Source: an uncultured Clostridia bacterium
GTDB taxonomy: Bacteria > Bacillota > Clostridia > Oscillospirales > Acutalibacteraceae
Direction of reading: 5' to 3'
DNA length: 64,000 nucleotides
Assembly (NCBI GenBank): GCA_947630285.1
Contig: CANRHD010000006.1
Coordinates: forward strand, 23,813-87,812
Part shown: piece after piece, positions 46 to 14,276 of the stretch
Layout: each line of letters begins with the position of its first letter
How positions within the stretch are numbered: the first letter of the stretch is position 1
Made by a program: the position numbers and the translations under genes
The notes under the pieces: generated by a model
What the model was told of the DNA's origin: nothing
The model's input: the letters and a program-made list of their open reading frames with translations, nothing else
The model's database searches: none

Positions 46-1530
46 ATGGAAAAGTATTTAATCAATCCAAATCAAAAAATCAGCAAAATCAACAAGGATA
101 TTTACGGCCATTTTTCGGAGCATCTCGGCCGCTGTATCTATGACGGTATTTTTGTGGGCGAGGACTCAAAAATCCCGAATGTAAACGGAATGAGATGCGA
201 TGTTGTAGACGCCTTAAAGCAAATGGGGCTTCCCGTTCTGCGCTGGCCGGGCGGCTGCTTTGCCGACGAGTACCATTGGAAAGACGGCATAGGCCCGAAG
301 CAGAGCAGAAAAAAGATGATAAACACCCATTGGGGCGGAGTTGTGGAGGACAATTCCTTCGGCACTCACGAATATTTTGAGCTTTGCCGTCAGCTCGGCT
401 GTGACACTTACATAAACGGCAATGTCGGTTCCGGCTCTGTGCGTGAAATGAGCGAGTGGGTCGAATATATGACCTTTGACGGCGTTTCGCCTATGGCGGA
501 GCTTCGTGCAAAGAACGGCAGTAAAGAGCCGTGGAGCGTAAAATATTTCGGCGTGGGCAACGAGAGCTGGGGTTGCGGCGGCGAAATGGATCCCGAATAC
601 TACGGCTGTCTTTTTAAAAGATACAATACCTATGTCAGGAACTATGACGGCGGCAAGCCTATTTTACGAATAGCCTGCGGTCCGAATGTTGACGATTACC
701 ACTGGACAAAGCAGGTTATGGACAAGGTTAAAAACAAAGCCGACGGCATATCGCTCCACTACTACACAATTCCCACGGGTAATTGGACTCACAAGGGTTC
801 CGCCACGGATTTTGACTTAAACGAATATAACTCTACCGTCTGCAAGGCTTACAGAATGGAGGAGCTTGTATCAAACCACCTTAAAATGATGGACAGCGTA
901 AAGCCCGACCACCGTGTTAAGCTGATTGTGGACGAATGGGGCACCTGGTACGATGTAGAGCCCGGAACAAATCCCGGCTTCCTCTACCAGCAAAACACCA
1001 TGCGTGACGCCATTGTTGCCGGCCTTACGCTCAACATTTTCAACAAGCACGCCGACAGAATAATGATGGCAAACATAGCGCAGACGGTAAATGTATTGCA
1101 GGCGGTAATACTCACCGAGGGCGAGAAAATGGTTCTCACCCCCACCTACCATGTGTTCAAAATGTATAAGGAGCATCAGGAAAACACGCTTATAGGCTCA
1201 TTCATAACCACCAAGGAGCTTTACTCCGAAAACGACAATAAAAAATACCCTCAGCTTGTAGAATCGGCTTCCGTTGACGGCAACGGCGTTATCTGCTCTA
1301 CAATTACGAACACATCCGCCGACGAGAGTGCGGAAATATGCTGTCAGGTTGCGGATTTCAACGCAGGCGAAATTAAGGCGGAAATTTTAAGCGGTGAAAT
1401 ACACGCAAAAAATGACTTTGAAAACGGCAACAGCGTTACCGTCAGGGAGTTTACGGATTTCACCAAAACCGCCGACGGCTTCAGGGCGCTGATACCTGCG
1501 TGCAGCGTCGTTAAATTCCTGATAAAATAA
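46..1530 (+). CDS. abfA: alpha-L-arabinofuranosidase, glycoside hydrolase family 51
   Basis: 494-aa ORF with GH51 signature blocks '[17 protein letters not shown]', '[14 protein letters not shown]' and '[12 protein letters not shown]'. Confidence 0.9.
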
Positions 1531-1533
1531 GCT

Positions 1534-1788
1534 ATGGAAAATTGTAAACGATGCCTTTTGCGTGAGAGTGCGGAAAAAGATGTTTATGAGGACATCAGGT
1601 TAAGAATTGACAGGCTATCAGAAAGCGAAAAATCCGACGATGAGCTGTACGGTATGCGCCTTGGGCTGTGCAGGGAATGCCAGCACCTCATATCGGGCGT
1701 TTGTATGAAGTGCGGCTGTTATGTGGAGCTCAGGGCGGCTTTTAAAAGACAACGCTGTCCCCTGCCCTCGTCCGATAAGAAATGGTAA
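1534..1788 (+). CDS. small Cys-rich hypothetical protein
   Basis: 84-aa ORF starting 4 nt after the abfA stop. Has CxxC pairs ('CKRC', 'CREC', 'CMKCGC'). No family recognised. Confidence 0.5.
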   Translation: MENCKRCLLRESAEKDVYEDIRLRIDRLSESEKSDDELYGMRLGLCRECQHLISGVCMKCGCYVELRAAFKRQRCPLPSSDKKW

Positions 1789-2321
1789 TGAACGGAAGTG
1801 ACTTTAAGGTGTTATACAATGAAGATTTAAACGGGCTGTCAAGGGAACAGCTTCTCGATTTGCTTTTGTCGGATTCCAAAAATCTGATTGCCATGGACGG
1901 CGTCTGGTTCCAGGCCATAGAAAAGGAAATGGGTATGGACAGCGCAATGCATTACGATGAGGAAGCGTGGAAGCTTTACACCCGTTCGGAGGCAAGACGG
2001 CTCAAAAAATTTTTGGGGCTTTCGGAGCACCCCGGCCTTGAGGGGCTTGCAAGGGCTCTGCCGCTTAGAATGGTCAGCCGTGCCAGCCCCAGCGAAACGC
2101 TGTTTAAGGACGGCAAGCTCATTCACAGAATACTTGTCTGCCGTGTTCAGGAAGCGAGAATAAGAAAAAATATGCCGCTTCACCCATGCAAAAGCGCCGC
2201 AATTTTTGAGTACGGCGGCTTTGCCGAGGCTATAGACGACAGAATTAAATGCCGGCCGATAAGCTGTTATCCCGATGTCACGGACAAAAACTGCTCTTGC
2301 AGTTGGGAATTTTACATATGA
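1782..2321 (+). CDS. hypothetical protein, Cys-containing, family not recognised
   Basis: 179-aa ORF overlapping the previous stop (ATGGTAATGA). The start may be the second ATG at 1788. Followed by a hairpin terminator. Confidence 0.5.
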   Translation: MVMNGSDFKVLYNEDLNGLSREQLLDLLLSDSKNLIAMDGVWFQAIEKEMGMDSAMHYDEEAWKLYTRSEARRLKKFLGLSEHPGLEGLARALPLRMVSRASPSETLFKDGKLIHRILVCRVQEARIRKNMPLHPCKSAAIFEYGGFAEAIDDRIKCRPISCYPDVTDKNCSCSWEFYI

Positions 2322-2387
2322 CAATATCCCATATATCGGAATATAAAGATAGCTAAAATATCTTTATATCAATATCGGAGCATAATT

Positions 2388-2422
2388 AAACCGCACCTGC
2401 GCTTTGCCGGTGCGGTTTTTGC
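2388..2422. terminator. bidirectional intrinsic terminator
   Basis: AAACCGCACC / GGTGCGGTTT stem followed by a T-run. Lies between convergent genes. Confidence 0.65.
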
Positions 2423-2454
2423 GTTAAGCTCGCCTTAAGGCGTGTTTTCGGCTC

Positions 2455-3063
2455 TTAAGACTTTTCTGCCCTGTAATTTTCTCCCCAGGCTTTCATAGCG
2501 TCAAGAACGGGCTTTAGAGATTTGCCAAGCTCCGACAGCGCATACTCCACCCTCGGCGGAACTTCGGGGGTAAGGCGAGGGGAACCGAACCCACACCGGT
2601 TTTCAACGGCGGATTTACGCCCATGCTGTGTCATCGCCCTTGACAATACGACAGTATTGTCTTCGGACGCTTCCTTGCCTGAACGCAAATCCGCTCGGTG
2701 AAAACTGCCTTGCACTTAACGCAGAGCTATTTTTCGTGTGATTTTGCGTGCGGACGAGGAAGCCTTGCTGACGCAAGGCAACGAGGAGAAGCGTAAAAGC
2801 GCCGGAAAGAGTCTGCGTGAAGCGGCGTGTGTTCGGCTCCCCTCGCCTTAAACTGTACGGGTAATCAGCCCGTCCGCTTCCATTGAGCGCAGGCTGTCAG
2901 TAAGCACCTTTTGACTGATGCCCTCCAGATTTTTTTGAAGCTCATTGAAACGCCACGGACGCTCGAGCAGGTTTCGTATAATTAAAAGCTTCCATTTGTT
3001 CCCGATAAGCTGTACGGTAGCCGCAACGGGACATTCGGGAATGAGCTCGGCTTTTGTTTTCAT
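2455..3063 (-). pseudogene. HxlR-family winged-helix regulator split by a 280-bp insertion
   Basis: The N-terminal half (2851..3063, 'CPVAATVQLIGNKWKLLIIRNL...GLITRTV') stops at a TAA supplied by the insert end. The C-terminal half ('[29 protein letters not shown]') resumes at about 2571 and runs to 2455. Confidence 0.85.
2571..2850. mobile_element. MITE-like non-autonomous element with ~29-bp imperfect terminal inverted repeats
   Basis: Left end is TAAGGCGAGGGGAACCGAACCCACACCGG. The reverse complement of the right end is TAAGGCGAGGGGAGCCGAACACACGCCGC (25/29 identical). It has no ORF, carries internal GC hairpins and interrupts a recognisable gene. Confidence 0.8.
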
Positions 3064-3262
3064 AAAGCACCTCCGTTACATCGTAAAAGAATGTTACATT
3101 CATATTATAATGTATTGGCTTATACAAGTCAATTTCGCTATACTTTAAAGACCTATTCATATAATTACGGTTACAAAAAAGTGCGTACTTGTAATTTAAA
3201 AAATTTTAATTATAATTTAAAATAACAACAAAAATTTACTGCAACAGAAAAGAGATAATGGT

Positions 3263-4045
3263 ATGACCCAGGAAAAACGCCGTATTTTTCTGATTAAAAC
3301 GCTTCTTGACGAGCAAACACGGTATCGGGATATTTCAATCCCCTGCGGCGAAGCAGAGCAGAAAACGCTGCTGCGCTCTTTAATGAATATCCGTCCTCCG
3401 CTACCCGTCGGCGAGAATTTTCTTGCGGTGCAGGACGCATATTTGCAGGAGGAAACAGCCCGTAAAGGCGTTACGGATATAGCAAAATTAACACCCGTTT
3501 CGCCGGGCATTTATCTTTGGCAGGGGGATATTACCACGCTCAAATGCGGCGCTGTTGTAAACGCCGCAAATTCCGGTCTGACCGGCTGTTATGTTCCCTG
3601 CCACGGCTGTATCGACAATGCCATTCACACCTTTGCCGGCGTTCGGCTTCGGCTTGCCTGCGCCGAAATTATGAAAAGGCAGGGGCATGAAGAACCGACC
3701 GGACAGGCAAAAATCACACCGGCATTTAATCTGCCCTGCGATTATGTTCTGCACACGGTCGGCCCGATAATACACGGCGGAGTTACCGAGAAGGACCGAG
3801 AACTGCTCGCCTCCTGCTACCGTTCGTGCTTGGAGCTGGCGCAGGAGAATAAAATCGGGAGCGTTGCCTTTTGCTGTATTTCCACGGGGGAATTTCATTT
3901 CCCGAACGAAGAGGCGGCAAAGATCGCAGTAAAAACGGTAAAGCAGTACCGTGGTGATACGGAGGTGATTTTTAATGTTTTCAAACATGAGGATTATAAA
4001 ATCTACAGAGAATTACTCGGACAGCCTATCCCGTCTGAAGCGTGA
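3263..4045 (+). CDS. macro-domain protein (protein-ADP-ribose / O-acetyl-ADP-ribose hydrolase type)
   Basis: 'GDITTLKCGAVVNAANSGLTG...IDNAIHTFAG...HTVGPII...AFCCISTGEFHFP' is a typical macrodomain core, preceded by an ~80-aa N-terminal extension. Confidence 0.8.
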   Translation: MTQEKRRIFLIKTLLDEQTRYRDISIPCGEAEQKTLLRSLMNIRPPLPVGENFLAVQDAYLQEETARKGVTDIAKLTPVSPGIYLWQGDITTLKCGAVVNAANSGLTGCYVPCHGCIDNAIHTFAGVRLRLACAEIMKRQGHEEPTGQAKITPAFNLPCDYVLHTVGPIIHGGVTEKDRELLASCYRSCLELAQENKIGSVAFCCISTGEFHFPNEEAAKIAVKTVKQYRGDTEVIFNVFKHEDYKIYRELLGQPIPSEA

Positions 4046-4847
4046 GCTTGCACAGGCGCAATGTGTAATAATAGGCGCAGGGGCAGGGCTTTCGACAGCC
4101 GCCGGATTTACTTATTCGGGCAGGCGTTTTGAAGATAATTTCGGCGACTTTATAAAAAAGTACAATATAGGCGATATGTATTCGGGCGGATTTTACCCTT
4201 TCCCTACGCAGGAGGAATTTTGGGCGTGGTGGAGCAGGCATATTTGGCTTAACCGCTATGTTGACGCCCCCAAACGGGTGTACGAAAAGTTGCTTGAAAT
4301 TGTAAAAGACAAGGATTATTTTGTTATCACAACAAATGTTGACCACTGCTTTCAAAAGTCCGGGTTTGAAAAGGAACGCCTTTTTTACACCCAAGGCGAT
4401 TACGGGCTTTTTCAATGCAGTGTTCCCTGCTGTGCCGAAACCTTTGACAACAGAGATTTAATTGCGCAAATGGTTGAACGGCAGAAAAATATGCGTATTC
4501 CCTCCGAGCTTTTGCCCGTCTGTCCCCATTGCGGAAAGCCGCTTACATTAAATCTGCGTTCTGACGGCAAATTTGTCGAGGACGAGGGCTGGCACAGAGC
4601 CGCTAAACGCTACGAAAATTTCATAAAAGCGGCTCAGGGGAAAAATATACTGTTTTTGGAGCTTGGCGTAGGCTATAACACCCCGATTATCATTAAATAT
4701 CCGTTTTGGGAAATGACGGCGAAAAACCCCGATGCGGTTTATGCCTGCATAAATTACGGCGAGGCGGTATGCCCCGAAGAAATAAAGCGCAGAGCCGTTT
4801 TGATAAACTGCGATATAGACAGGGTCTTGACGGATTTATTGCAATAA
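3975..4847 (+). CDS. Sir2-family protein, macrodomain-linked (SirTM-like) type
   Basis: 'VIIGAGAGLSTAAGF' NAD loop, 'TTNVDHCF' and the zinc ribbon 'CSVPCC...CPHCG'. GGAGG RBS lies 9 nt before the ATG at 3975. Overlaps the macro gene by 71 nt out of frame. Confidence 0.7.
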   Translation: MFSNMRIIKSTENYSDSLSRLKRELAQAQCVIIGAGAGLSTAAGFTYSGRRFEDNFGDFIKKYNIGDMYSGGFYPFPTQEEFWAWWSRHIWLNRYVDAPKRVYEKLLEIVKDKDYFVITTNVDHCFQKSGFEKERLFYTQGDYGLFQCSVPCCAETFDNRDLIAQMVERQKNMRIPSELLPVCPHCGKPLTLNLRSDGKFVEDEGWHRAAKRYENFIKAAQGKNILFLELGVGYNTPIIIKYPFWEMTAKNPDAVYACINYGEAVCPEEIKRRAVLINCDIDRVLTDLLQ

Positions 4848-5008
4848 TAAGCCTCTTGTTATCCTGTGCCGTTCTGAAAGCGTCAAGCGCCATAAATGAA
4901 GTGCGGCGGCATTTGAAAAAACTCCCATTAAGAAAATTCTTACATAAAAAAATAAAAAGTGCTATAATTAAACTGTAAAATTTATTGTAAGAAACGGAGT
5001 GAGCGAAA

Positions 5009-5509
5009 ATGTATAAAATAGGTGACCGTATAATTTACGGAGCAATGGGAGTGTGCGATATTAAAGCAATAGGTCCGCTTGACATTAAGGGCGCTGACCG
5101 TTCGGTTGATTACTATACCCTGTCCCCCGTTTATCAGGAGGGTAAAATTTTTGCGCCGGTCAACACCGATACCTATATTCGTCCGATTTTAACAAAACAG
5201 GAGGCGCTTGAGCTTATCGGCAAAATTCCCGAAATCGAAGAGGGAGTTTTTGAGGACAACAATCCCCGTCTGCTCAACGAGCATTACAAAATTTATCTCA
5301 AAAGCGGCGACTGTGTGGATTTGCTTCGCCTTATTCGTGAGATTTACTGCAAAAGCCAAAGGGCAAAGAAAAACGGGCGGCACCTCGGTCAGGTTGACGA
5401 GCAAAATATGAAACGAGCGCAGGAGCTTCTGCACAACGAGCTTGCATGCGCATTGGAAATCAAGCCAAACGAGGTAAGCGATTTTATAACAAAAACGCTT
5501 GAGGGCTGA
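5009..5509 (+). CDS. CarD/CdnL-family RNA-polymerase-binding regulator
   Basis: 166 aa. The N-terminal 'YKIGDRIIYGAMGVCDIKAI' is a Tudor-like CarD_CdnL_TRCF domain. Confidence 0.75.
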   Translation: MYKIGDRIIYGAMGVCDIKAIGPLDIKGADRSVDYYTLSPVYQEGKIFAPVNTDTYIRPILTKQEALELIGKIPEIEEGVFEDNNPRLLNEHYKIYLKSGDCVDLLRLIREIYCKSQRAKKNGRHLGQVDEQNMKRAQELLHNELACALEIKPNEVSDFITKTLEG

Positions 5510-5594
5510 TTTTGCACAAATTAATAAATTCGGGTTTTAATTTCTTTTATAAAGCCCGCCTTTTACCGTAAAAAATTTTTTAATATTAAATTTT

Positions 5595-5643
5595 AAACGC
5601 CCTGCGTTCAATCGGTTTAAAATCGAGCGTCGGGCGTTTTTAT
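5595..5643 (+). terminator. intrinsic terminator
   Basis: AAACGCCC...GGGCGTTTTTATT hairpin plus T-run downstream of the CarD-like gene. Confidence 0.55.
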
Positions 5644-5742
5644 TACACCCCGAAAAGCCCGAAACAGCGTTGTTTATAAGCTGTGTAAAGCAATCTGACT
5701 TTACACTTGATACGGCGCAAAAATCCGTACACGGAAATTTGA

Positions 5743-5885
5743 TTTATAAAGGCGGTCGGTATTTTTATGCCCGAAAATTAATAATCAGGCCAATTTTTTC
5801 GACATTTAGGCAATATTGGCTTGTCATTTTATTTTTATTATGTTATTCTAATATCGGTAAATATTTTAAAGGGGCGGTGTTTATG
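5743..5885 (+). repeat. promoter/leader module copy A (paralogous to 8294..8436)
   Basis: About 143 bp aligns by eye at roughly 80% with 8294..8436. Shared strings are 'tttataaagg', 'tatgcccgaaa', 'caattttttc.acatttaggcaatat', 'ggcttgtc' and 'gg.ggtgtttATG'. Confidence 0.8.
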
Positions 5886-6053
5886 TATCTGATGATTAAA
5901 TTGAATAATATTTATCTTCCCTTTTTAGTTATTATCTTTATTGTAATGTGCGGAATAACCATAAAAAAATTTATTGTTTCCGATAAAAATAAATATCGGG
6001 CGCTGTTTGCTGCAATCGTATTATTAATAAATTTAATAATCGATATATTATAG
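5883..6053 (+). CDS. possible 56-aa hydrophobic peptide
   Basis: The ATG sits exactly where the protease ATG sits in module copy B. The product is two predicted TM helices. Very AT-rich, so it may not be real. Confidence 0.3.
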   Translation: MYLMIKLNNIYLPFLVIIFIVMCGITIKKFIVSDKNKYRALFAAIVLLINLIIDIL

Positions 6054-6066
6054 TCATTATCAGGAT

Positions 6067-6165
6067 AAAGGAGCGGTGTTAATATCGGTGGTTTTGGCGC
6101 TGTGCTTGCCTGCAACATAAATTTGTGCAGTAAAAATCCGTGCACGGAAATTTGTTTTATGAAGC
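6067..6165 (+). repeat. deletion 'ghost' of the protease cassette: RBS plus signal-peptide codons fused to the cassette tail
   Basis: 6067..6104 matches 8420..8468 but lacks 12 bp that include the ATG. 6105..6165 matches the region after the lipoprotein gene (12474..12535, 'cctgcaacataaattt...aaaaatccgtg'). Confidence 0.75.
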
Positions 6166-6176
6166 TAAAATTTGTT
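6148..6176 (+). promoter_or_regulatory. direct repeat AAATTTGTT x2 (start-to-start 20 nt), candidate LytTR-type operator
   Basis: Two exact 9-mers upstream of the response-regulator promoter. Assignment to the LytTR regulator is inference only. Confidence 0.25.
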
Positions 6177-6216
6177 GCAATAAAAAATATTGATTTTTTT
6201 CTAAAAGAGGAAAAAC

Positions 6217-6245
6217 TTGAAAAATAACAAAAGGCAATGTATAAT
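6217..6245 (+). promoter_or_regulatory. sigma-A type promoter of the two-component operon
   Basis: TTGAAA, 17-nt spacer, TATAAT, about 40 nt upstream of the ATG at 6285. Confidence 0.6.
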
Positions 6246-6284
6246 TTTTGTATTGTACATTGCTTTTTCTTTTGGAGTGTTGTT

Positions 6285-7004
6285 ATGAAGGTTGCTGTTT
6301 GTGATGATGAAAAAGATTACAGAGAACTGATTTTACAGTATATAAAATTCTATTTTACGGAACATTCTGTGGATTTAGAAACATTTGAGTTCAAAAGCGG
6401 TGAAGAATTGCTTTCCTCGGAGCATACATTTGACATAGTGTTTCTTGATATTGAAATGGAAGCGTTAAATGGCATTCAGACGACAAGAGAAATAAATAAG
6501 AAAAGCAGAAAAACTCTTATCTTTATTGTTACGGCATATCAAAAATATCTTGACGATGCTATGGATCTTAATATTTTCAGATATATTGATAAACCGATAA
6601 AAGCGCAAAGAATATATAATGGACTGGAAAAAGCTATTGATTTTATAAATAATAATGAAATAACATTTAAAGCCAGAGATGACGGAATTGTCACGCTATG
6701 CAAAAATGATATTGTTTTTGTCGAAGTGGCAAGAAAAAAAGTATATGTCAACACCTTTGAAAAGCAGTATATTGCAAGAGAAAATATGAATTATTTTAAG
6801 GATAACCTCACAGCCTCATATTTTGCTATACCCCACTCGAGCTATGTGGTTAATTTTAATTATATCAAGAACTTCCAAAGGGATAAAATCACTATGAAAA
6901 CGGGGCAGATAATTTCAATCGCACCGAGGAAACAGACTGAAATCAAAAAGAAATTTATGCGGTTTATAGGAGACGGCTATGGAGGCTTATCAGATAATAT
7001 TTAA
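6285..7004 (+). CDS. LytTR-family response regulator
   Basis: Receiver domain ('VAVCDDEKDY...FLDIEM') plus a C-terminal LytTR DNA-binding domain ('IVFVEVARKKVYVNT...IPHSSYVVNFNYI'). GGAG RBS before the ATG at 6285; the ORF-track start at 6237 is less likely. Confidence 0.9.
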   Translation: MKVAVCDDEKDYRELILQYIKFYFTEHSVDLETFEFKSGEELLSSEHTFDIVFLDIEMEALNGIQTTREINKKSRKTLIFIVTAYQKYLDDAMDLNIFRYIDKPIKAQRIYNGLEKAIDFINNNEITFKARDDGIVTLCKNDIVFVEVARKKVYVNTFEKQYIARENMNYFKDNLTASYFAIPHSSYVVNFNYIKNFQRDKITMKTGQIISIAPRKQTEIKKKFMRFIGDGYGGLSDNI

Positions 7005-8277
7005 TATTTTACTGTATTTTTCGGAAGGGTTAATACTGTTTTATTATGCCGATTCATTCTTTGAAAGGAAATATTCGGCGCTTAAAACGGTATTGTGCGT
7101 TTCCGCTTTTCATATAGCTTTGTTCGGAATATATTATTTAGACAATACGATTTTAAACCTTGCGGCGCTGTTTGCGGCGTACTGTTTGGTTTTTTCGTTG
7201 CTTTACAAATGTAAAATTTTATCTTCGATTTTCAACTCGACGCTTCTTTTGGCGGTTATGTGGATATGCGAGTGGGCGGTGCTTTTCATAACGACGCTGT
7301 TTAATGATAATGACTTTAACGCTTATCAATACTCCCCCGCCGTTAGAATTTTTGATACAACGCTTAGTAAATTGGCATATTATTTAGTCTGCTTAATTTT
7401 AATTCGCCTGTTTTCAAAACAAATTAAAAACAAGCAAAACAAGGCCGTATATTGGCAATTAATGATTATGCCCGTATCGTCTCTTGCGGCAATATTTGCT
7501 TTCAGGTATATCACATCGGAAGCGACGCTTACAAATAAAGCAAATATTATCTGCTCGATTGTTTCACTGCTTCTTTTGTTTGCAAATATAGTTGTTTTTT
7601 TGGTTTACGAGCATGCCATTAACACGGCGGCAGAGCTTTATGAGCTAAGAGCAATAAGACAAAAGCAGGAGACGGAAAAGCAATACCTTGATATTTTGGA
7701 GCAAAACAATAAGGATTTAAAAATATTTACCCATGACATAAAAAATCATTTGGAGCAGATAGGCAATATTGCCGAAAACGACGAGGTAACAAAATATATT
7801 TCGGGTTTATACGGTACAATAAATCAATACGGCAACACGGTAATTAGCGGAAACAAAACGCTTGATATAATCCTGAGCAAATACAATACTCTGTGCGCCA
7901 ATAAGTCAATTTCAATTACCGTCAAGGTTAAAGAGGCTAATTTATCGGATATTGACAACTCGGATTTATCTACCATATTAAACAATGCGCTTGACAATGC
8001 GGTTGAGGCCGCCGAGAAAAGCGCAAAGAGGCAAATCTCTGTTGACATATATTCACGCCGGGGATTTGAAGTTGTTAAAATCCAAAACAGTTGCGATACC
8101 GCTCCGAAAACATCTAACCAAAAGCTTTTAACCGCCAAACAAAATAAAGACCTGCACGGGCTCGGCTATGAAAGCATAGTAAAAACGGTCAAGCGGTATC
8201 AGGGCATACCCGACTGGGTTTACGATGAGGAAAATAAAATTTTTGAATTGACTGTAGCGATACCCATAAATAGATAA
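6979..8277 (+). CDS. AgrC/ComD-like membrane histidine kinase (GHKL, SpoOB-type ATPase domain)
   Basis: About 6 N-terminal TM helices, H-box 'FTHDIKNHL', N-box 'LNNALDNAVEA' and G-box 'HGLGYESI'. Overlaps the regulator gene by 26 nt. Confidence 0.85.
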   Translation: MEAYQIIFNILLYFSEGLILFYYADSFFERKYSALKTVLCVSAFHIALFGIYYLDNTILNLAALFAAYCLVFSLLYKCKILSSIFNSTLLLAVMWICEWAVLFITTLFNDNDFNAYQYSPAVRIFDTTLSKLAYYLVCLILIRLFSKQIKNKQNKAVYWQLMIMPVSSLAAIFAFRYITSEATLTNKANIICSIVSLLLLFANIVVFLVYEHAINTAAELYELRAIRQKQETEKQYLDILEQNNKDLKIFTHDIKNHLEQIGNIAENDEVTKYISGLYGTINQYGNTVISGNKTLDIILSKYNTLCANKSISITVKVKEANLSDIDNSDLSTILNNALDNAVEAAEKSAKRQISVDIYSRRGFEVVKIQNSCDTAPKTSNQKLLTAKQNKDLHGLGYESIVKTVKRYQGIPDWVYDEENKIFELTVAIPINR

Positions 8278-8293
8278 TTAATATACCGATTGC

Positions 8294-8436
8294 TTTATAA
8301 AGGCAATCGGTATATTTATGCCCGAAAGTTAATAATTAGGTCAATTTTTTCAACATTTAGGCAATATGGCTTGTCTTTTTATTTTCCTTATGTACTATAA
8401 ATATCGGTATAAAATTTAAAAGGAGTGGTGTTTATG
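8294..8436 (+). repeat. promoter/leader module copy B (paralogous to 5743..5885)
   Basis: See copy A. Preceded by the perfect 11-bp inverted repeat ATACCGATTGC / GCAATCGGTAT at 8283..8313. Confidence 0.8.
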
Positions 8437-11400
8437 AAAAAAATAATATCGGTGGTTTTGGCGCTGTGTTTAACGGCGACGATATTTCCGTTTACTGTAT
8501 TTTCTCAAAACATCACTCCCGAAATATCGCTTGAGGAGTTTACAAAACAACTAAATCGGCTTCAGGAGGAATATGACGGAAATTTTGCTTCGGAAATCAT
8601 TATTGAAGATGATAAGGAGTTTTGCCATATTGACGGTGAGGAATATCCCGTTGCCGATGATTTGGAAACAACAGCCGAAGTTACCGAAAACGATATTGAA
8701 ATTCCGTATTCCTTAATAGAACAGTATGTTGAAATTCCCGAAATTTCAACATATTCAGAAGCGCAAAACGACAACGGCGCAACCGTTGACAAAGAAGCTG
8801 CCGAAGCTCTCGGTTTTGAGGTAGATATTGACGAGAATAAAGCTGTGCTTACACAGCCTTATCAGACCAAAAGGCTGATAGTAAAATCCAAGTATAATAT
8901 AGACCGTCTTGACAGCGTAGCCGTAGTTGAGGGTTACGATGATTTGCATATAGTTCAGTTTGACAGCCGTGAAAGCGCAAAGCAGGCGGAAGAATACTAC
9001 AACAGTCAAATGCTTGTTGAATTTGCCGAGCCCGATTTGGTTATGTCAACAATGGAATATGAGGACAGCGAAACGGAAAGCGCACCTACATACGGCATAA
9101 ACGACTATGGTTATCATCTGTCTTGGGGCAGTGAATTTATCGGCGTTGACGACTATGTAGATTATATCGGCGACAGGAATAACCTGCCTGAAATAGTAGT
9201 TGGCATAATAGACTCGGGAATTGACTACAATCACGATTTTCTTAAAGACAGAGTTATTCACACCGACTATAATGTAAGCTCATCGGGAGCGGAAAATGAT
9301 GAAAATGACGATAATGGGCACGGAACTCATGTTGCGGGTATTGTTGCGGACAACACCTTGGGAAATGTTAAAATAAAAGCCTTTAAAGCTATGAATGATG
9401 AGGGAATCGGCGATCTTTCAAGCATTATTACCACATTTGAATATGCTGTAGCTGACGGTGTGCAGATAATCAATATGAGCCTTGGCGCTAAGGGCGAAAG
9501 CAAAGCGTTTGAAAAATCAATTAACGAAGCTACAAAAGCAGGCGTAATAGTGTGTGTTTCGGCAGGAAATAACGGCCGCGACGCTTCCCAAAACTGTCCG
9601 GCAAACATTGAAAGCTGTATAACGGTAGGTGCTTATGATAAAGGTCCTGTTTCAAATTCAGTTGCAGTACCGTATTGGACTAGCTATGGACCGTTAGTCG
9701 ATATTTTTGCGCCCGGAGTTTCAATTTACAGTACATATCTTGACAACGGATATGAAACCCTAAGCGGAACATCAATGGCATGTCCTTTTGCAGTTGCGGC
9801 TTCAGCGCTTCTTTTGTCAAAAGACATTAGCTTAAATACTGATGGGATATGCGATTTACTGCAAGAAAACGGAAAAAATTTTTATTGGCTTTCCATCACA
9901 AATTACTCATTATACATCGCTACAATAACAGAATACAATCAATTCAGGACAGAGAAGCCCATGTTCAGTATGGAAAGCGGCAGGTATTCCGACAGCGTAA
10001 CGGTGGAGCTTTCCTGCCCCGAGGAAAATGCCGAGATATATTATACCCTCGACGGCTCAAGAGCCTCAAGGGCGAACGGAATTCTTTACACAGAGCCTAT
10101 TGTAATTGACAAGGTAACAAGGGTTCACGCCGCCGCCTATGTCGGAGATAAGCTGAAAAGTCTTCAGGCAATAGCCGATTATTATATAACCATGACTGAC
10201 TCGGATGGGAATTTTGAAATAGATACAGACGGGTTGATTACTAAATATAACGGGACAAATCAGTATTTGACAATTCCCGATACAATCAACGGCATTACGG
10301 TAACGGGTATAGGCAGGCAAGCTTTTAAAGACCAAGATATGATTATGATGAAGTTCCCCGACACTCTGACATATGTAGCAGATTGGGGACTTTATGGGCA
10401 GAACACCTTAAAATCGGTATATTGCAATAATCTTAAAAGAGCCGGAGAAAGGGCGTTTTACGGTTGCCGTGCTCTTGAAGAAATAGATTTAACTCAACTT
10501 GAAGAAGTAGGCGTATACAGCTTTGGAAACTGTACTTCAATTAGGGAGCTTCGCAACGAAAAATTAACAAAGCTTGAAAAGGGCTCATTCAGTAATTTAA
10601 GAAATGCCGTAAGCATTGATTTACCTAATGTAACAGCTATTGGTAATGCGGGTTTAGGGAACTTAAATGCTGTGGAATATGTTAATTTGCCAAGCCTTGA
10701 AACGATGGGCAGCAATGTATTTTTAGCCGCTTTTCTCATTGAATCTCTCGACCTTCCCAATTTAACAACTTTAACCGGGGGACATTGCTTTGGCAGTACA
10801 CACAATCTGAAAGAACTTAATGTGCCGAAATTAAGAGGAGCGATTTATCAAAACACATTTTGGGATTCTGCGCTTGAATATATTGATCTTCCGAATATTA
10901 CAGATTTATATGAAGGCGCATTTGACTGCAGCAATGCTAAAGTTATCAAATTGTCAAGCGCCGCAACTATTGACGAGCAGGCTTTTGACGGATGTAAGTA
11001 TTTAGAGAAATTATACATTCCGTCAATAACCCAGTTGCCAAATAGAGCTCTTACCGAAACAAGGTCAATCAAAATGCTTTTTGCACCGAGTTTAATAAAC
11101 GCAGTATCAATGCCCGAGTGCGACGGTACAACAATATATCTGTCTGATGCTTGTACCAATCTGCCTGCTATACAAAGATATTCCTATAACATCGTAGCGC
11201 CGTCGGGCTCATATGCAGAGCAATGGGCAAGTGAAAACGGGCATAATTTCATTCCAAGCGACAGCAGAAATGAAAGCATAAAAAATCCCTCTAATGTAGC
11301 GGATTTGGGCAGGTCGATTTGCGTCTCTGCCGCAGGACTGCGTTTCGGCTTTAACTGGGATAATCTTGAGGAAATCGAAAGCCTTGCTGACAATATCGAA

Positions 11401-11728: not shown

Positions 11729-11848
11729 ATGAAAAAGGAATATATTAAGCCCGATTTTGAAATTTTAATTTTTGAAACAGACGATATTATCACAATAAGC
11801 GATCTCGGACCGGGTGATAATGTGGTAGAGCCGTGGTTCATCGTATGA
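11729..11848 (+). CDS. unannotated 39-aa peptide MKKEYIKPDFEILIFETDDIITISDLGPGDNVVEPWFIV
   Basis: Below the ORF-track cutoff. GGAGAGG RBS lies about 9 nt upstream and the start is 5 nt after the protease stop. Its TGA overlaps the lipoprotein ATG (ATGA). Confidence 0.5.
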   Translation: MKKEYIKPDFEILIFETDDIITISDLGPGDNVVEPWFIV

Positions 11849-12441
11849 AAAACAGGATTATTTTTGCATCTCTGATGTTGGTTTTAGCGTCGGTTATGCT
11901 TGTATCGTGTAAACAGGACAAAAAAACGGACGGGAACGCAACCGTTGCCGTGACCGACAGCAGCGGCATAACTCATTACTATGAACTTGTTACCGATAAA
12001 GGCGGAAATGCCGTTACGGAAGATAAAAATCAGGCTGTGTTTGCCGAAATTGTAACCGACAAAAGCGGTTCATACATAACGAACGGTCATACGACCGTAC
12101 TGCTGATTGAAAATGAGGTCAATCAAGACCGTATATCAAACTCAACGAAAAAAAATCCGTCTTATACAGAAAAAAGCGGCAATATTGCAGAGGCCGATAA
12201 TACAGTTAATTTTGAATTATCGGGATTAAATCCCGTTACAGAAGAAAATACAACAGCGACTGCAAAACCCGACACGACTAAGACTGCCCCGGCAAGTACA
12301 AAGCCTGTTGCGACTAAGACTTTCCCGGCAAGTACAAAGCCTGACGACGCCAAGACTTCTGCGGTGAGTGCGACATCTGCAATAAAGTCAACCAATCCGC
12401 CTGCCACCGACAGCAACGGCTGGGTTACTAAATGGTATTAA
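11845..12441 (+). CDS. lipoprotein with a Thr/Pro/Ala-rich repeat tail
   Basis: 'MKNRIIFASLMLVLASVMLVSC' is a signal peptide plus lipobox. C-terminal repeats 'TKTAPASTKPVATKTFPASTKPDD'. Confidence 0.7.
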   Translation: MKNRIIFASLMLVLASVMLVSCKQDKKTDGNATVAVTDSSGITHYYELVTDKGGNAVTEDKNQAVFAEIVTDKSGSYITNGHTTVLLIENEVNQDRISNSTKKNPSYTEKSGNIAEADNTVNFELSGLNPVTEENTTATAKPDTTKTAPASTKPVATKTFPASTKPDDAKTSAVSATSAIKSTNPPATDSNGWVTKWY

Positions 12442-13330: not shown

Positions 13331-13852
13331 AAAAGACAGCAAACTTTTTAGTCTGCTGTCTTTCTTTGGTGGAGACGGTCGGGATCGAAGCTTCGCTTCG
13401 CTTGCTTCGTTCGCTTGGCTTTGCCAAGCCTTTCGCATTTTTATGTCCGCCTCGCTCTGCCTGTCGGCAAACCGCTCGGCATGGACTAATTCGCTTCGCT
13501 TACTTCGTTCGGTTGCTTCGCAACCCTTTCGCATTTTTATGTCCGCCTCGCTCTGCCTGTCGGCAAACCGCTCGGCATGGACTGTTCGGTTCGCTCCCGA
13601 CATTATACTTTGCAAAATAAAGAAAAGACAGCAAACTTTTAGTCTGCTGTCTTTTCTTTGGTGGAGACGGTCGGGATCGAAGCTTCGCTTCGCTTGCTTC
13701 GTTCGGTTGCTTCGCAACCCTTTCGCATTTTATGTCCGCCTCGCTCTGCCTGTCGGCAAACCGCTCGGCATGGACTGTTCGGTTCGCTCCCGACATTATA
13801 CTTTGCAAAATAAGCAAAAGACAGCAAACTTTTTAGTCTGCTGTCTTTTCTT
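13331..13852 (-). repeat. two tandem tRNA-Ala-derived chimeric units (about 13367..13598 and 13659..13791), each with its own copy of the tRNA terminator hairpin
   Basis: Each unit repeats four parts of the tRNA-Ala locus. These are the upstream 'TTGCAAAG.TAT' string, a 5' acceptor-like GGGAGCG, the exact last 23 nt of tRNA-Ala (TTCGATCCCGACCGTCTCCACCA) and the terminator hairpin. The D and anticodon arms are replaced by 100-200 nt of repeat sequence. Confidence 0.8.
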
Positions 13853-13928
<76 letters not shown>

Positions 13929-14276
13929 ATATCTTTGCAAGCCTTGATTTTACTAAGGTTTTGGCTTGTTTTTTACATTCAATTTAAAATTACTTTCGGG
14001 GTAGTTTACCTGTTCGCTTGCGCTCCAAAGCTTAAGCTACGCCACAAGCGCAAAGATATAATATCACAAAGTAAATAAAAACTCAACTGTTTTTTCAAAA
14101 ATATAAAAATTTTTTCTCTTGGTCTAAAAATTGCTTTTATCATAAGATTTTAATAATTACGCCGCAGTAAAGGCAGAGAAAAAATCGGTAAGCTTTTGAT
14201 AAATTACATAAGCGTTAAAAACGGCGTTAGCGCAACTTCTTAAAGAGCGGAAAATATCGGGTAAAAGCTCGGAATA

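Follow-up and report, generated by a model that had tools for sequence, protein, structure and literature searches.

The window discussed here, a stretch of 64,000 nucleotides from contig CANRHD010000006.1 of an uncultured Clostridia bacterium, carries behind its tRNA-Ala(GGC) gene two tandem units which rather likely are divergent relatives of the RtT-type repeats found behind tRNA genes in Escherichia coli, or else close analogues of them. The feature is real and represents a divergent form of an already known element class whose function has no explanation, not a new tRNA mimic. Its design, an inverted copy of the tRNA's T-arm, then hairpins, then the tRNA 3′-end repeated in direct orientation, is found in Clostridia, and gut and environmental metagenomes commonly contain it. 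Although the E. coli RtT repeats have been known since the late 1970s, the role of rtT is still described as unknown (bioRxiv 10.1101/2024.07.17.603846).

The whole array lies on the minus strand. It begins with the intact tRNA-Ala(GGC) gene (13853-13928), called by ARAGORN and given 54.8 bits by the Rfam tRNA model. An intrinsic terminator hairpin follows at 13816-13849, found by a terminator scan and as an inverted repeat; having an A-tract on its 5′ side and a T-tract on its 3′ side, it could terminate in both directions. A 21-nt spacer containing TTGCAAAGTATAAT (13795-13815) then leads to unit 1 (13659-13794, 136 nt), which starts 61 nt past the tRNA and holds a single module. From 5′ to 3′, this unit is made of an inverted T-arm copy (13779-13794), hairpin H1 (13734-13775), hairpin H2 with a GAA triloop (13705-13719), hairpin H3 (13678-13692), and a direct copy of tRNA positions 54-76 (13659-13681). 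The terminator hairpin (13622-13654, detected by repeat search) and the TTGCAAAGTATAAT spacer (13602-13621, within the 193-nt period) then recur ahead of unit 2 (13367-13601, 235 nt). Its ends are those of unit 1, while its H1-H2 module is doubled into two copies of ~96 nt each, roughly at 13490-13585 and 13392-13488, the second with a variant H2 (GCTTGGC-AAA-GCCAAGC). A third terminator copy (13331-13363), also recovered by repeat search, closes the array, and beyond it come unique sequence and the end of a 225-aa gene.

The repetition is precise. Tandem Repeats Finder reports a period of 193 with 2.0 copies (97% matches, score 737) and an inner sub-repeat of period 96; measured on the sequence, the period is 193-194 nt. 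The 23-mer TTCGATCCCGACCGTCTCCACCA occurs at exactly three sites in the window, at the end of the tRNA and of each unit, and a 22-mer of the GC-rich insert occurs three times against none expected. The string TTGCAAAG, followed by TAT, precedes the tRNA (as TTGCAAAGATAT) as well as both units (as TTGCAAAGTATAAT). Much of this had been noticed in the initial annotation, and the analysis bears it out: two tandem units behind the tRNA, a shared upstream string, an exact 23-nt 3′-end, a complete terminator hairpin, a GC-rich insert doubled in the longer unit, hairpin variants (GGTTGC/GCAACC versus GCTTGGC/GCCAAGC, confirmed by repeat search and in the sequence), and an involvement of tandem duplication. 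Its sizes of ~133 and ~232 nt become 136 and 235 nt once the preceding GTC is counted.

The 5′-end of the unit proved to be the key to its architecture. There, GTCGGGAGCGAACCGA is the reverse complement of the tRNA T-arm at 15 of 16 positions, a match that none of 2000 shuffles equalled. In the minimum free energy (MFE) fold, this inverted T-arm and the copied T-loop and 3′ T-stem at the other end of the unit come together in a helix, P1 (GUCGGGA/UCCCGAC in the window), which encloses the bundle of hairpins and leaves an 11-nt tail (...CGTCTCCACCA) single-stranded. Fold z-scores on the minus strand are −2.4 and −4.3, the latter for unit 2, versus −0.97 on the plus strand. The initial annotation had taken GGGAGCG as a 5′ acceptor strand and had drawn from it an analogy with transfer-messenger RNA (tmRNA), resting on recognition of a G3:U70 pair by alanyl-tRNA synthetase (AlaRS). 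The heptamer is indeed present, but it sits inside GTCGGGAGCGAACCGA and thus belongs to the inverted T-arm copy, not to an acceptor. GGGAGCG and CGTCTCC can pair at six of seven positions in the window, G3:U70 included, yet the same bases are engaged in P1 in the energy-minimum fold. Since no acceptor stem forms there, the tmRNA-like reading fails: as modelled, the units are unable to form this stem or to be charged by AlaRS, and they are not tmRNA-like.

What the units share with tmRNA and other acceptor mimics is a 3′-end in ...CCACCA with U70. They differ from these in having no acceptor stem, no T-arm (the T-stem, as had been remarked, is unable to form), no D-loop analogue, and no open reading frame (ORF) for a tag. 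Only tRNA positions 54-76 are present in direct orientation, which leaves no cloverleaf. Neither ARAGORN nor Rfam calls a tmRNA or a tRNA in the units, and the sole match of the Rfam tmRNA_permuted model in this region of the window, at 16 bits, lies over the end of the tRNA. Two further ideas, that the module is the D-arm of a class II tRNA (GCCGAGCGGT) or a diverged antisense tRNA, were by-eye impressions only and were dropped as unsupported.

What, then, do the units resemble? Their layout matches that of the E. coli tyrT locus. Its 178-bp repeats give four matches to RF00391, the RtT family of Rfam, at 133-137 bits. Primary papers on the distal repeats of tyrT and tyrV are those of Egan and Landy in 1978, Rossi et al. 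in 1981, and Bosl and Kersten in 1991 (cited in PMC2965389 and PMC4986893). The first 22 nt of the E. coli unit agree with the reverse complement of the T-arm/acceptor region of tRNA-Tyr at 19 positions, its last 19 nt are the last 19 nt of tRNA-Tyr, and in the RF00391 consensus GgGaaGG/CCuuCcC make up the closing helix, with the tail, ccaCCACCA, left unpaired. The likeness to the window and to the ~30 metagenomic loci described below is one of plan. In both systems the units stand behind or between tRNA genes and on the same strand; they end with a copy of the tRNA 3′-end including CCA (23 nt in the window, 19 nt in E. coli); the closing helix is formed with an inverted T-arm at their 5′-end, and the CCA tail stays unpaired; tandem copies recur with a period of ~170-195 nt, namely 178 in E. 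coli and 193-194 in the window, the spacing from CCA-end to CCA-end being 164-200 nt across the family; the interior is made of GC-rich hairpins with GNA-type loops; and this interior is common to units behind different tRNAs of one genome, while the ends are specific to each tRNA.

The two systems also differ, first in their hosts, a Clostridia lineage as opposed to a gammaproteobacterium, and in their tRNAs, Ala(GGC) as opposed to Tyr. In the window an intrinsic terminator separates the tRNA from each unit; at tyrT, a Rho-dependent site inside the repeat takes its place. The inner module can be duplicated in the window, and no small ORF resembling tpr was identified in the window units. As regards RNA products, the literature treats rtT as a by-product that arises when tRNA operons are processed, with a possible link to the stringent response (bioRxiv 10.1101/2024.07.17.603846; PMC2965389), and in Actinobacillus Northern blots revealed RNAs of the RtT family that adjoin tRNA genes (PMC4986893). 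As a side observation, two spacers of the E. coli serV-argVYZQ operon (1361-1560 and 1775-1974 of locus L139, L-numbers being the labels of the loci compared, which comprise metagenome contigs, genomes, viral contigs, and E. coli) hold short RtT-like units whose interior looks similar and whose ends are specific to tRNA-Arg; RF00391 does not report them at its gathering score.

The window is not alone in its design. A spurious plus-strand ORF over the array, used as a query against protein databases, retrieved equally spurious ORFs over analogous arrays. In L099 the order is tRNA-Ala(GGC), terminator, unit, terminator, second unit; in L100 and L101 it is tRNA-Ala(GGC), terminator, unit, and a different terminator. 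These units are, by eye, ~60% identical to those of the window or less, and the 5′-end of each is the reverse complement of its own genome's T-arm (GGGATCGAACCG in L099, GGGGATCGAACCC in L100). A metagenome scan with a pattern anchored on both unit ends, including the P1 core, returned 36 loci, with ~30 genuine units of 113-141 nt, lying 49-61 nt behind a tRNA-Ala gene (anticodons GGC, CGC, and TGC) and on its strand. Across the family, identity to the tRNA 3′-end covers 18-29 nt, starting anywhere from position 54 to 57, and the last unit is often trailed by a terminator unlike that of the tRNA. Arrays of two units are seen in independent lineages (L099, L113, L137, and L127). A literature search found no description of such units outside Gammaproteobacteria.

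Nor are the units confined to tRNA-Ala. When all 178 tRNAs of the loci compared were inspected without a pattern, units came to light behind tRNA-Ser in L116 and L117, and one was confirmed behind the tRNA-Val(CAC) of L118, whose match to the pattern was owed only to the shared ...TCCACCA end. As this tRNA-Val carries A3:U70, and as tRNA-Ser is also served, the association is not with alanine identity. In L116 the Ser unit is located between two tRNA-Ser genes of an operon, and its interior agrees by eye with that of the same genome's Ala unit at ~85% identity, with ends that are Ser-specific; L117 likewise has Ala and Ser units with a common interior and tRNA-specific ends. Two local peculiarities were noted along the way. 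In L107 (1774-2020), the tRNA-derived 3′-end of the unit differs from the adjacent tRNA-Ala at three positions, and the unit resembles that of L129, as if unit or tRNA had been exchanged. In L100 (4919-5099), two matches to Gut-1 RNA (RF01706), on opposite strands, lie directly past the unit's terminator.

The fold is common to the family. In the energy-minimum folds of 37 units, nearly all show P1 (7-14 bp) closing a junction of 3-5 hairpins, with 11-14 nt ending in ...CUCCACCA left unpaired. The acceptor 3′ strand has no consistent partner, be it internal, at the 5′-end, in a pseudoknot, or in an acceptor stem, and in many units it has none at all. An alignment of 11 window-type unit sequences, referred to as type A, was submitted to RNAalifold, which found 26 pairs, 9 of them with compensatory changes. 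In this alignment 94.9% of the cells pair, and double-change cells number 26, versus 9.7 in shuffles (0/500 as high) and 1-6 in slid controls; these compensatory changes support the hairpins. R1, the covariance model built from the type-A alignment, scores unit 1 at 145.4 bits and unit 2 at 115.6 bits (over 13367-13506). On the E. coli units its match is weak and in register, at 14.9 bits (E = 0.002) for one unit. The loops, too, are oriented: on the tRNA-sense strand 22 of 38 triloops are GNA and 14 of 37 tetraloops GNRA, with 0 and 1 for the mirror types, and the sense strand gives the more stable fold in 26 of the 37 units (p = 0.004).

Several observations weigh against placing the window units with RtT or against reading them as RNA. 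The models of Rfam 15 detect nothing in the units. RF00391, whose gathering threshold is 45 bits, gives no match to the window units even at E ≤ 10, and it also misses the units of 18 other loci, so that common descent with E. coli RtT rests on architecture and on one weak model match. At the outer 5′ positions, which the search pattern did not select, the match to the genome's own T-arm is only moderate (3.1 of 6, versus 2.0 of 6 for other T-arms). P1 shows no independent covariation in the type-A alignment, where it is invariant because the search pattern fixed its core. A good intrinsic terminator stands between tRNA and unit in the window and in most gut loci, and no conserved promoter is found ahead of the units, either by the window scan or in the spacers of other lineages; transcription of the window units, argued from analogy, could be low. 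G-U pairs are rare (~1 in 40 pairs), and the C-GNA-G triloops are of a kind typical for stable hairpins of DNA; this rarity of G-U leaves a fold of RNA indistinguishable from one of single-stranded DNA in the data at hand. As for a promoter of the units' own, the spacer at 13795-13815 has a −10-like hexamer and lacks a usable −35, and the promoter scan reports no site in it; the idea was rejected, as TATAAT occurs only in the window lineage and nothing is conserved in the spacers of the others.

This brings up the first rival, in which the unit acts, as folded single-stranded DNA, in the role of a recombination site, or else is a very small non-autonomous mobile element, P1 serving to rebuild the double-stranded T-arm core. 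In its mobile version, a segment of ~190 nt (tRNA 3′-end, terminator, spacer, and hairpins) would insert at the T-loops of tRNA genes. Folded single-strand recombination sites are well known from the attC sites of integrons and the attP(+) of phage CTX. By analogy, two inverted half-sites ~100 nt apart could refold a duplex core in the units as well, and conserved structure over variable sequence, a strand-specific fold, and arrays are common to both. The layout of inverted site, ~100-nt spacer, and direct site fits this picture, as do the often unrelated terminator past the last unit (expected of an inserted segment), the common interior and tRNA-specific ends of Ala and Ser units in one genome, the strain-variable copy number, and the excess of C-GNA-G triloops with nearly no G-U pairs and no UNCG loops. 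Unlike attC or attP(+), however, the units come with no associated integrase, and in most loci with no ORF cassettes. None of the loci links a unit to a recombinase, an HUH enzyme, or a reverse transcriptase, and no recombinase was found among the called gene neighbours of the examined loci, the window ORFs having been scanned in part. Units are not dispersed, the module being confined to one locus per genome in a scan of GTDB genomes; the point where tRNA identity starts shifts between positions 54 and 57; and the relatives known from E. coli and Actinobacillus are transcribed as RNA. On balance we hold this explanation to be unlikely. Analogies with retroelements, IS200/IS605, IS91, casposons, and bridge RNAs were rejected for lack of any supporting gene or motif.

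A little more unlikely still is the explanation already offered in the initial annotation, that the units are scars left at attachment (att) sites by elements targeting the T-loop of tRNA-Ala and later duplicated in tandem. On this view the GC-rich module would be the arm of such an element beside the core site. Integrative elements are known to accrete in tandem at tRNA genes, as in CIME/ICE accretion or tycheposon arrays, and the close relatives of the window give the idea some substance. The module 22-mer, in the GTDB scan, located the same locus in two rabbit-gut genomes also labelled "uncultured Clostridia bacterium" (L007 and L009), whose flanking genes are 92-95% identical to those of the window; matches in Pseudomonas and Methyloceanibacter lie inside coding DNA and were discarded as chance. 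In L009, a 5.1-kb island (795-5917) starts exactly 3′ of the unit's CCACCA. The island has genes for a TIR-domain protein, a zinc-ribbon protein, and tape-measure-like fragments, and is closed by a nearly full-length pseudo-tRNA (a fragment of 59 nt or more) with the usual terminator. L016 has two islands (5640-10642), each ending in tRNA(18-48), modules, and the 23 nt, one of which carries a Thoeris system (ThsA_Macro and ThsB_TIR domains). No integrase is visible in the islands of L009 or L016. The duplicated 23-nt end of the unit is thus a real integration site in this lineage, and since islands occupy it in relatives the scar idea is partly right. As in other att repeats, a tRNA 3′-end forms the direct repeat, and in L009 and L016 such repeats bound islands with defence genes. 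Integrated elements commonly give rise to partial tRNA genes (PMC9897764), and the anticodon arm of tRNA-Ala is found in 73 viral contigs of IMG/VR, several of them prophage ends with a pseudo-tRNA.

The units themselves nevertheless differ from att repeats in being free of cargo, in their covarying conserved fold, and in their inverted T-arm copy. Between the repeats of the window lie only ~110-210 nt of hairpins; ~30 loci of unrelated lineages have a unit with neither island nor integrase nearby; the hairpins show compensatory changes; the unit 5′-end follows the T-arm of the local tRNA, inverted; and units also occur inside tRNA operons (E. coli and L116). Among the 73 viral contigs there is no unit, and their pseudo-tRNA ends lack the module. 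IMG/VR scans with the 23-mer, the module, and the end-anchored pattern returned nothing, nor did BLAST searches of plasmids with the window array and a human-gut unit. The scar proposal is half right: the attachment site stands, but the island-free loci, the covariation, and the RtT architecture speak against it.

It is also very improbable that the second unit is an assembly artefact, with the repeat wrongly expanded. A protein search with the neighbouring AraC gene as query brought up six near-identical metagenome contigs. One of them, L001, covers the whole locus and has just one unit there, of two modules, and two others, L002 and L003, break inside the repeat, which means that copy number either varies between strains or has been collapsed in assembly. 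L007 also has one unit, with one module, and outside this lineage L099 has two units and L126 one. The strain comparison called for earlier thus did reveal variation in copy number (or collapse). Against wrong expansion, the two window units are not identical, since they differ in module number (one or two), in the length of an A run (4 or 5), and in the variant H2, and two-unit arrays recur in the other lineages named above. Last, a tmRNA-like or minihelix-like RNA, charged by AlaRS through a G3:U70 stem of GGGAGCG and CGTCTCC, has next to no probability, given that P1 takes up these bases, that many family members offer the acceptor 3′ strand no partner, and that units also stand behind a tRNA-Val with A3:U70 and behind tRNA-Ser.

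Taking the units as relatives of RtT, one can sketch how they may have multiplied. The tRNA and every unit share the same final ~60 nt (the 23 nt plus terminator), and unequal recombination between these ends would gain or lose whole units of ~193 nt, while recombination between the ~96-nt modules would produce units with one module or two; copy number probably changes by such unequal recombination. If they behave as rtT does in E. coli, read-through from the tRNA promoter would transcribe the units, and the 3′-end processing that matures the tRNA would release them as a stable structured RNA. A side effect would be that the duplicated 23-nt end offers a second landing site to integrases targeting tRNA-Ala.

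A wider reading is that the units of the window, the ~30 from metagenomes, and the RtT of E. coli form one ancient class across phyla, whose interior is shared within a genome and whose two ends are rebuilt from the preceding tRNA. We regard this as a doubtful proposal. If true, it would call for a dedicated copying or recombination mechanism that spreads units between tRNA loci, or for a function as un-chargeable mimics. Such mimics of the free ...NCCA end of uncharged tRNA could tune the TGS domain of RelA/Rel or T-box leaders, and an old report, in which rtT is said to alter the stringent response, would fit. Independently of this proposal, the new points are a distribution that extends to tRNA-Ala, -Val, and -Ser and a conserved core made of P1 and a free CCA tail. 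A diverse and covarying alignment is now at hand for a family model, the current Rfam model being blind to these units. For annotation, the units are extra tRNA 3′-ends that break short-read assemblies and act as secondary landing sites for islands, so that a reader can misjudge them as att scars or pseudo-tRNAs.

Some searches around the locus remained without result. The 225-aa flanking protein has no exact copy on record, and its distant homologues (P0004 and P0007) have neither tRNA nor unit nearby; the same is true of homologues of the 107/130-aa ORF of the island (P0013, P0021, and P0028). A first scan of JGI metagenomes with the module 22-mer returned nothing.

Several minor features complete the picture. 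The pseudo-tRNAs at the island ends of L009 and L016 have their D-arm replaced by a CCCG-loop-CGGG hairpin. Three IMG/VR contigs (L029, L080, and L081) show prophage ends with a pseudo-tRNA-Ala (GGGGGTGC..ACCCGA....TCGGGAGAGCGC...) in which the hairpin replacing the D-arm varies in a compensatory manner, and ARAGORN calls one of these pseudo-tRNAs a 79-nt tRNA-Ala. In the window, the T-stem of the tRNA-Ala starts with an A49:C65 mismatch at its base, which lowers the Rfam score of this tRNA, whose sequence is identical in L001, L007, and L009. The probable promoter of its transcription unit lies at 14058-14086 on the minus strand (TTGAGT, a 17-nt spacer, TATTAT, and an upstream TG, from the promoter scan) and is conserved in the same three loci. 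Just past it, at 14020-14045 on the minus strand, is a decayed copy of the first ~27 nt of the tRNA (GTGGCGTAGCTTAAGCTTTGGAGCGC), separated from the tRNA by a 91-nt insert (13929-14019, minus strand) whose 3′-end is TTGCAAAGATAT; the start of this insert (AAGCGAACAGG) and its end resemble the start of a unit and the spacer upstream of the units. L007 has neither the decayed copy nor the insert, and its tRNA comes directly after the promoter. Farther away, a 36-nt tandem repeat (2.7 copies, 12263-12359) lies within a 202-aa ORF (11833-12441), in a stretch rich in Thr, Pro, and Lys.

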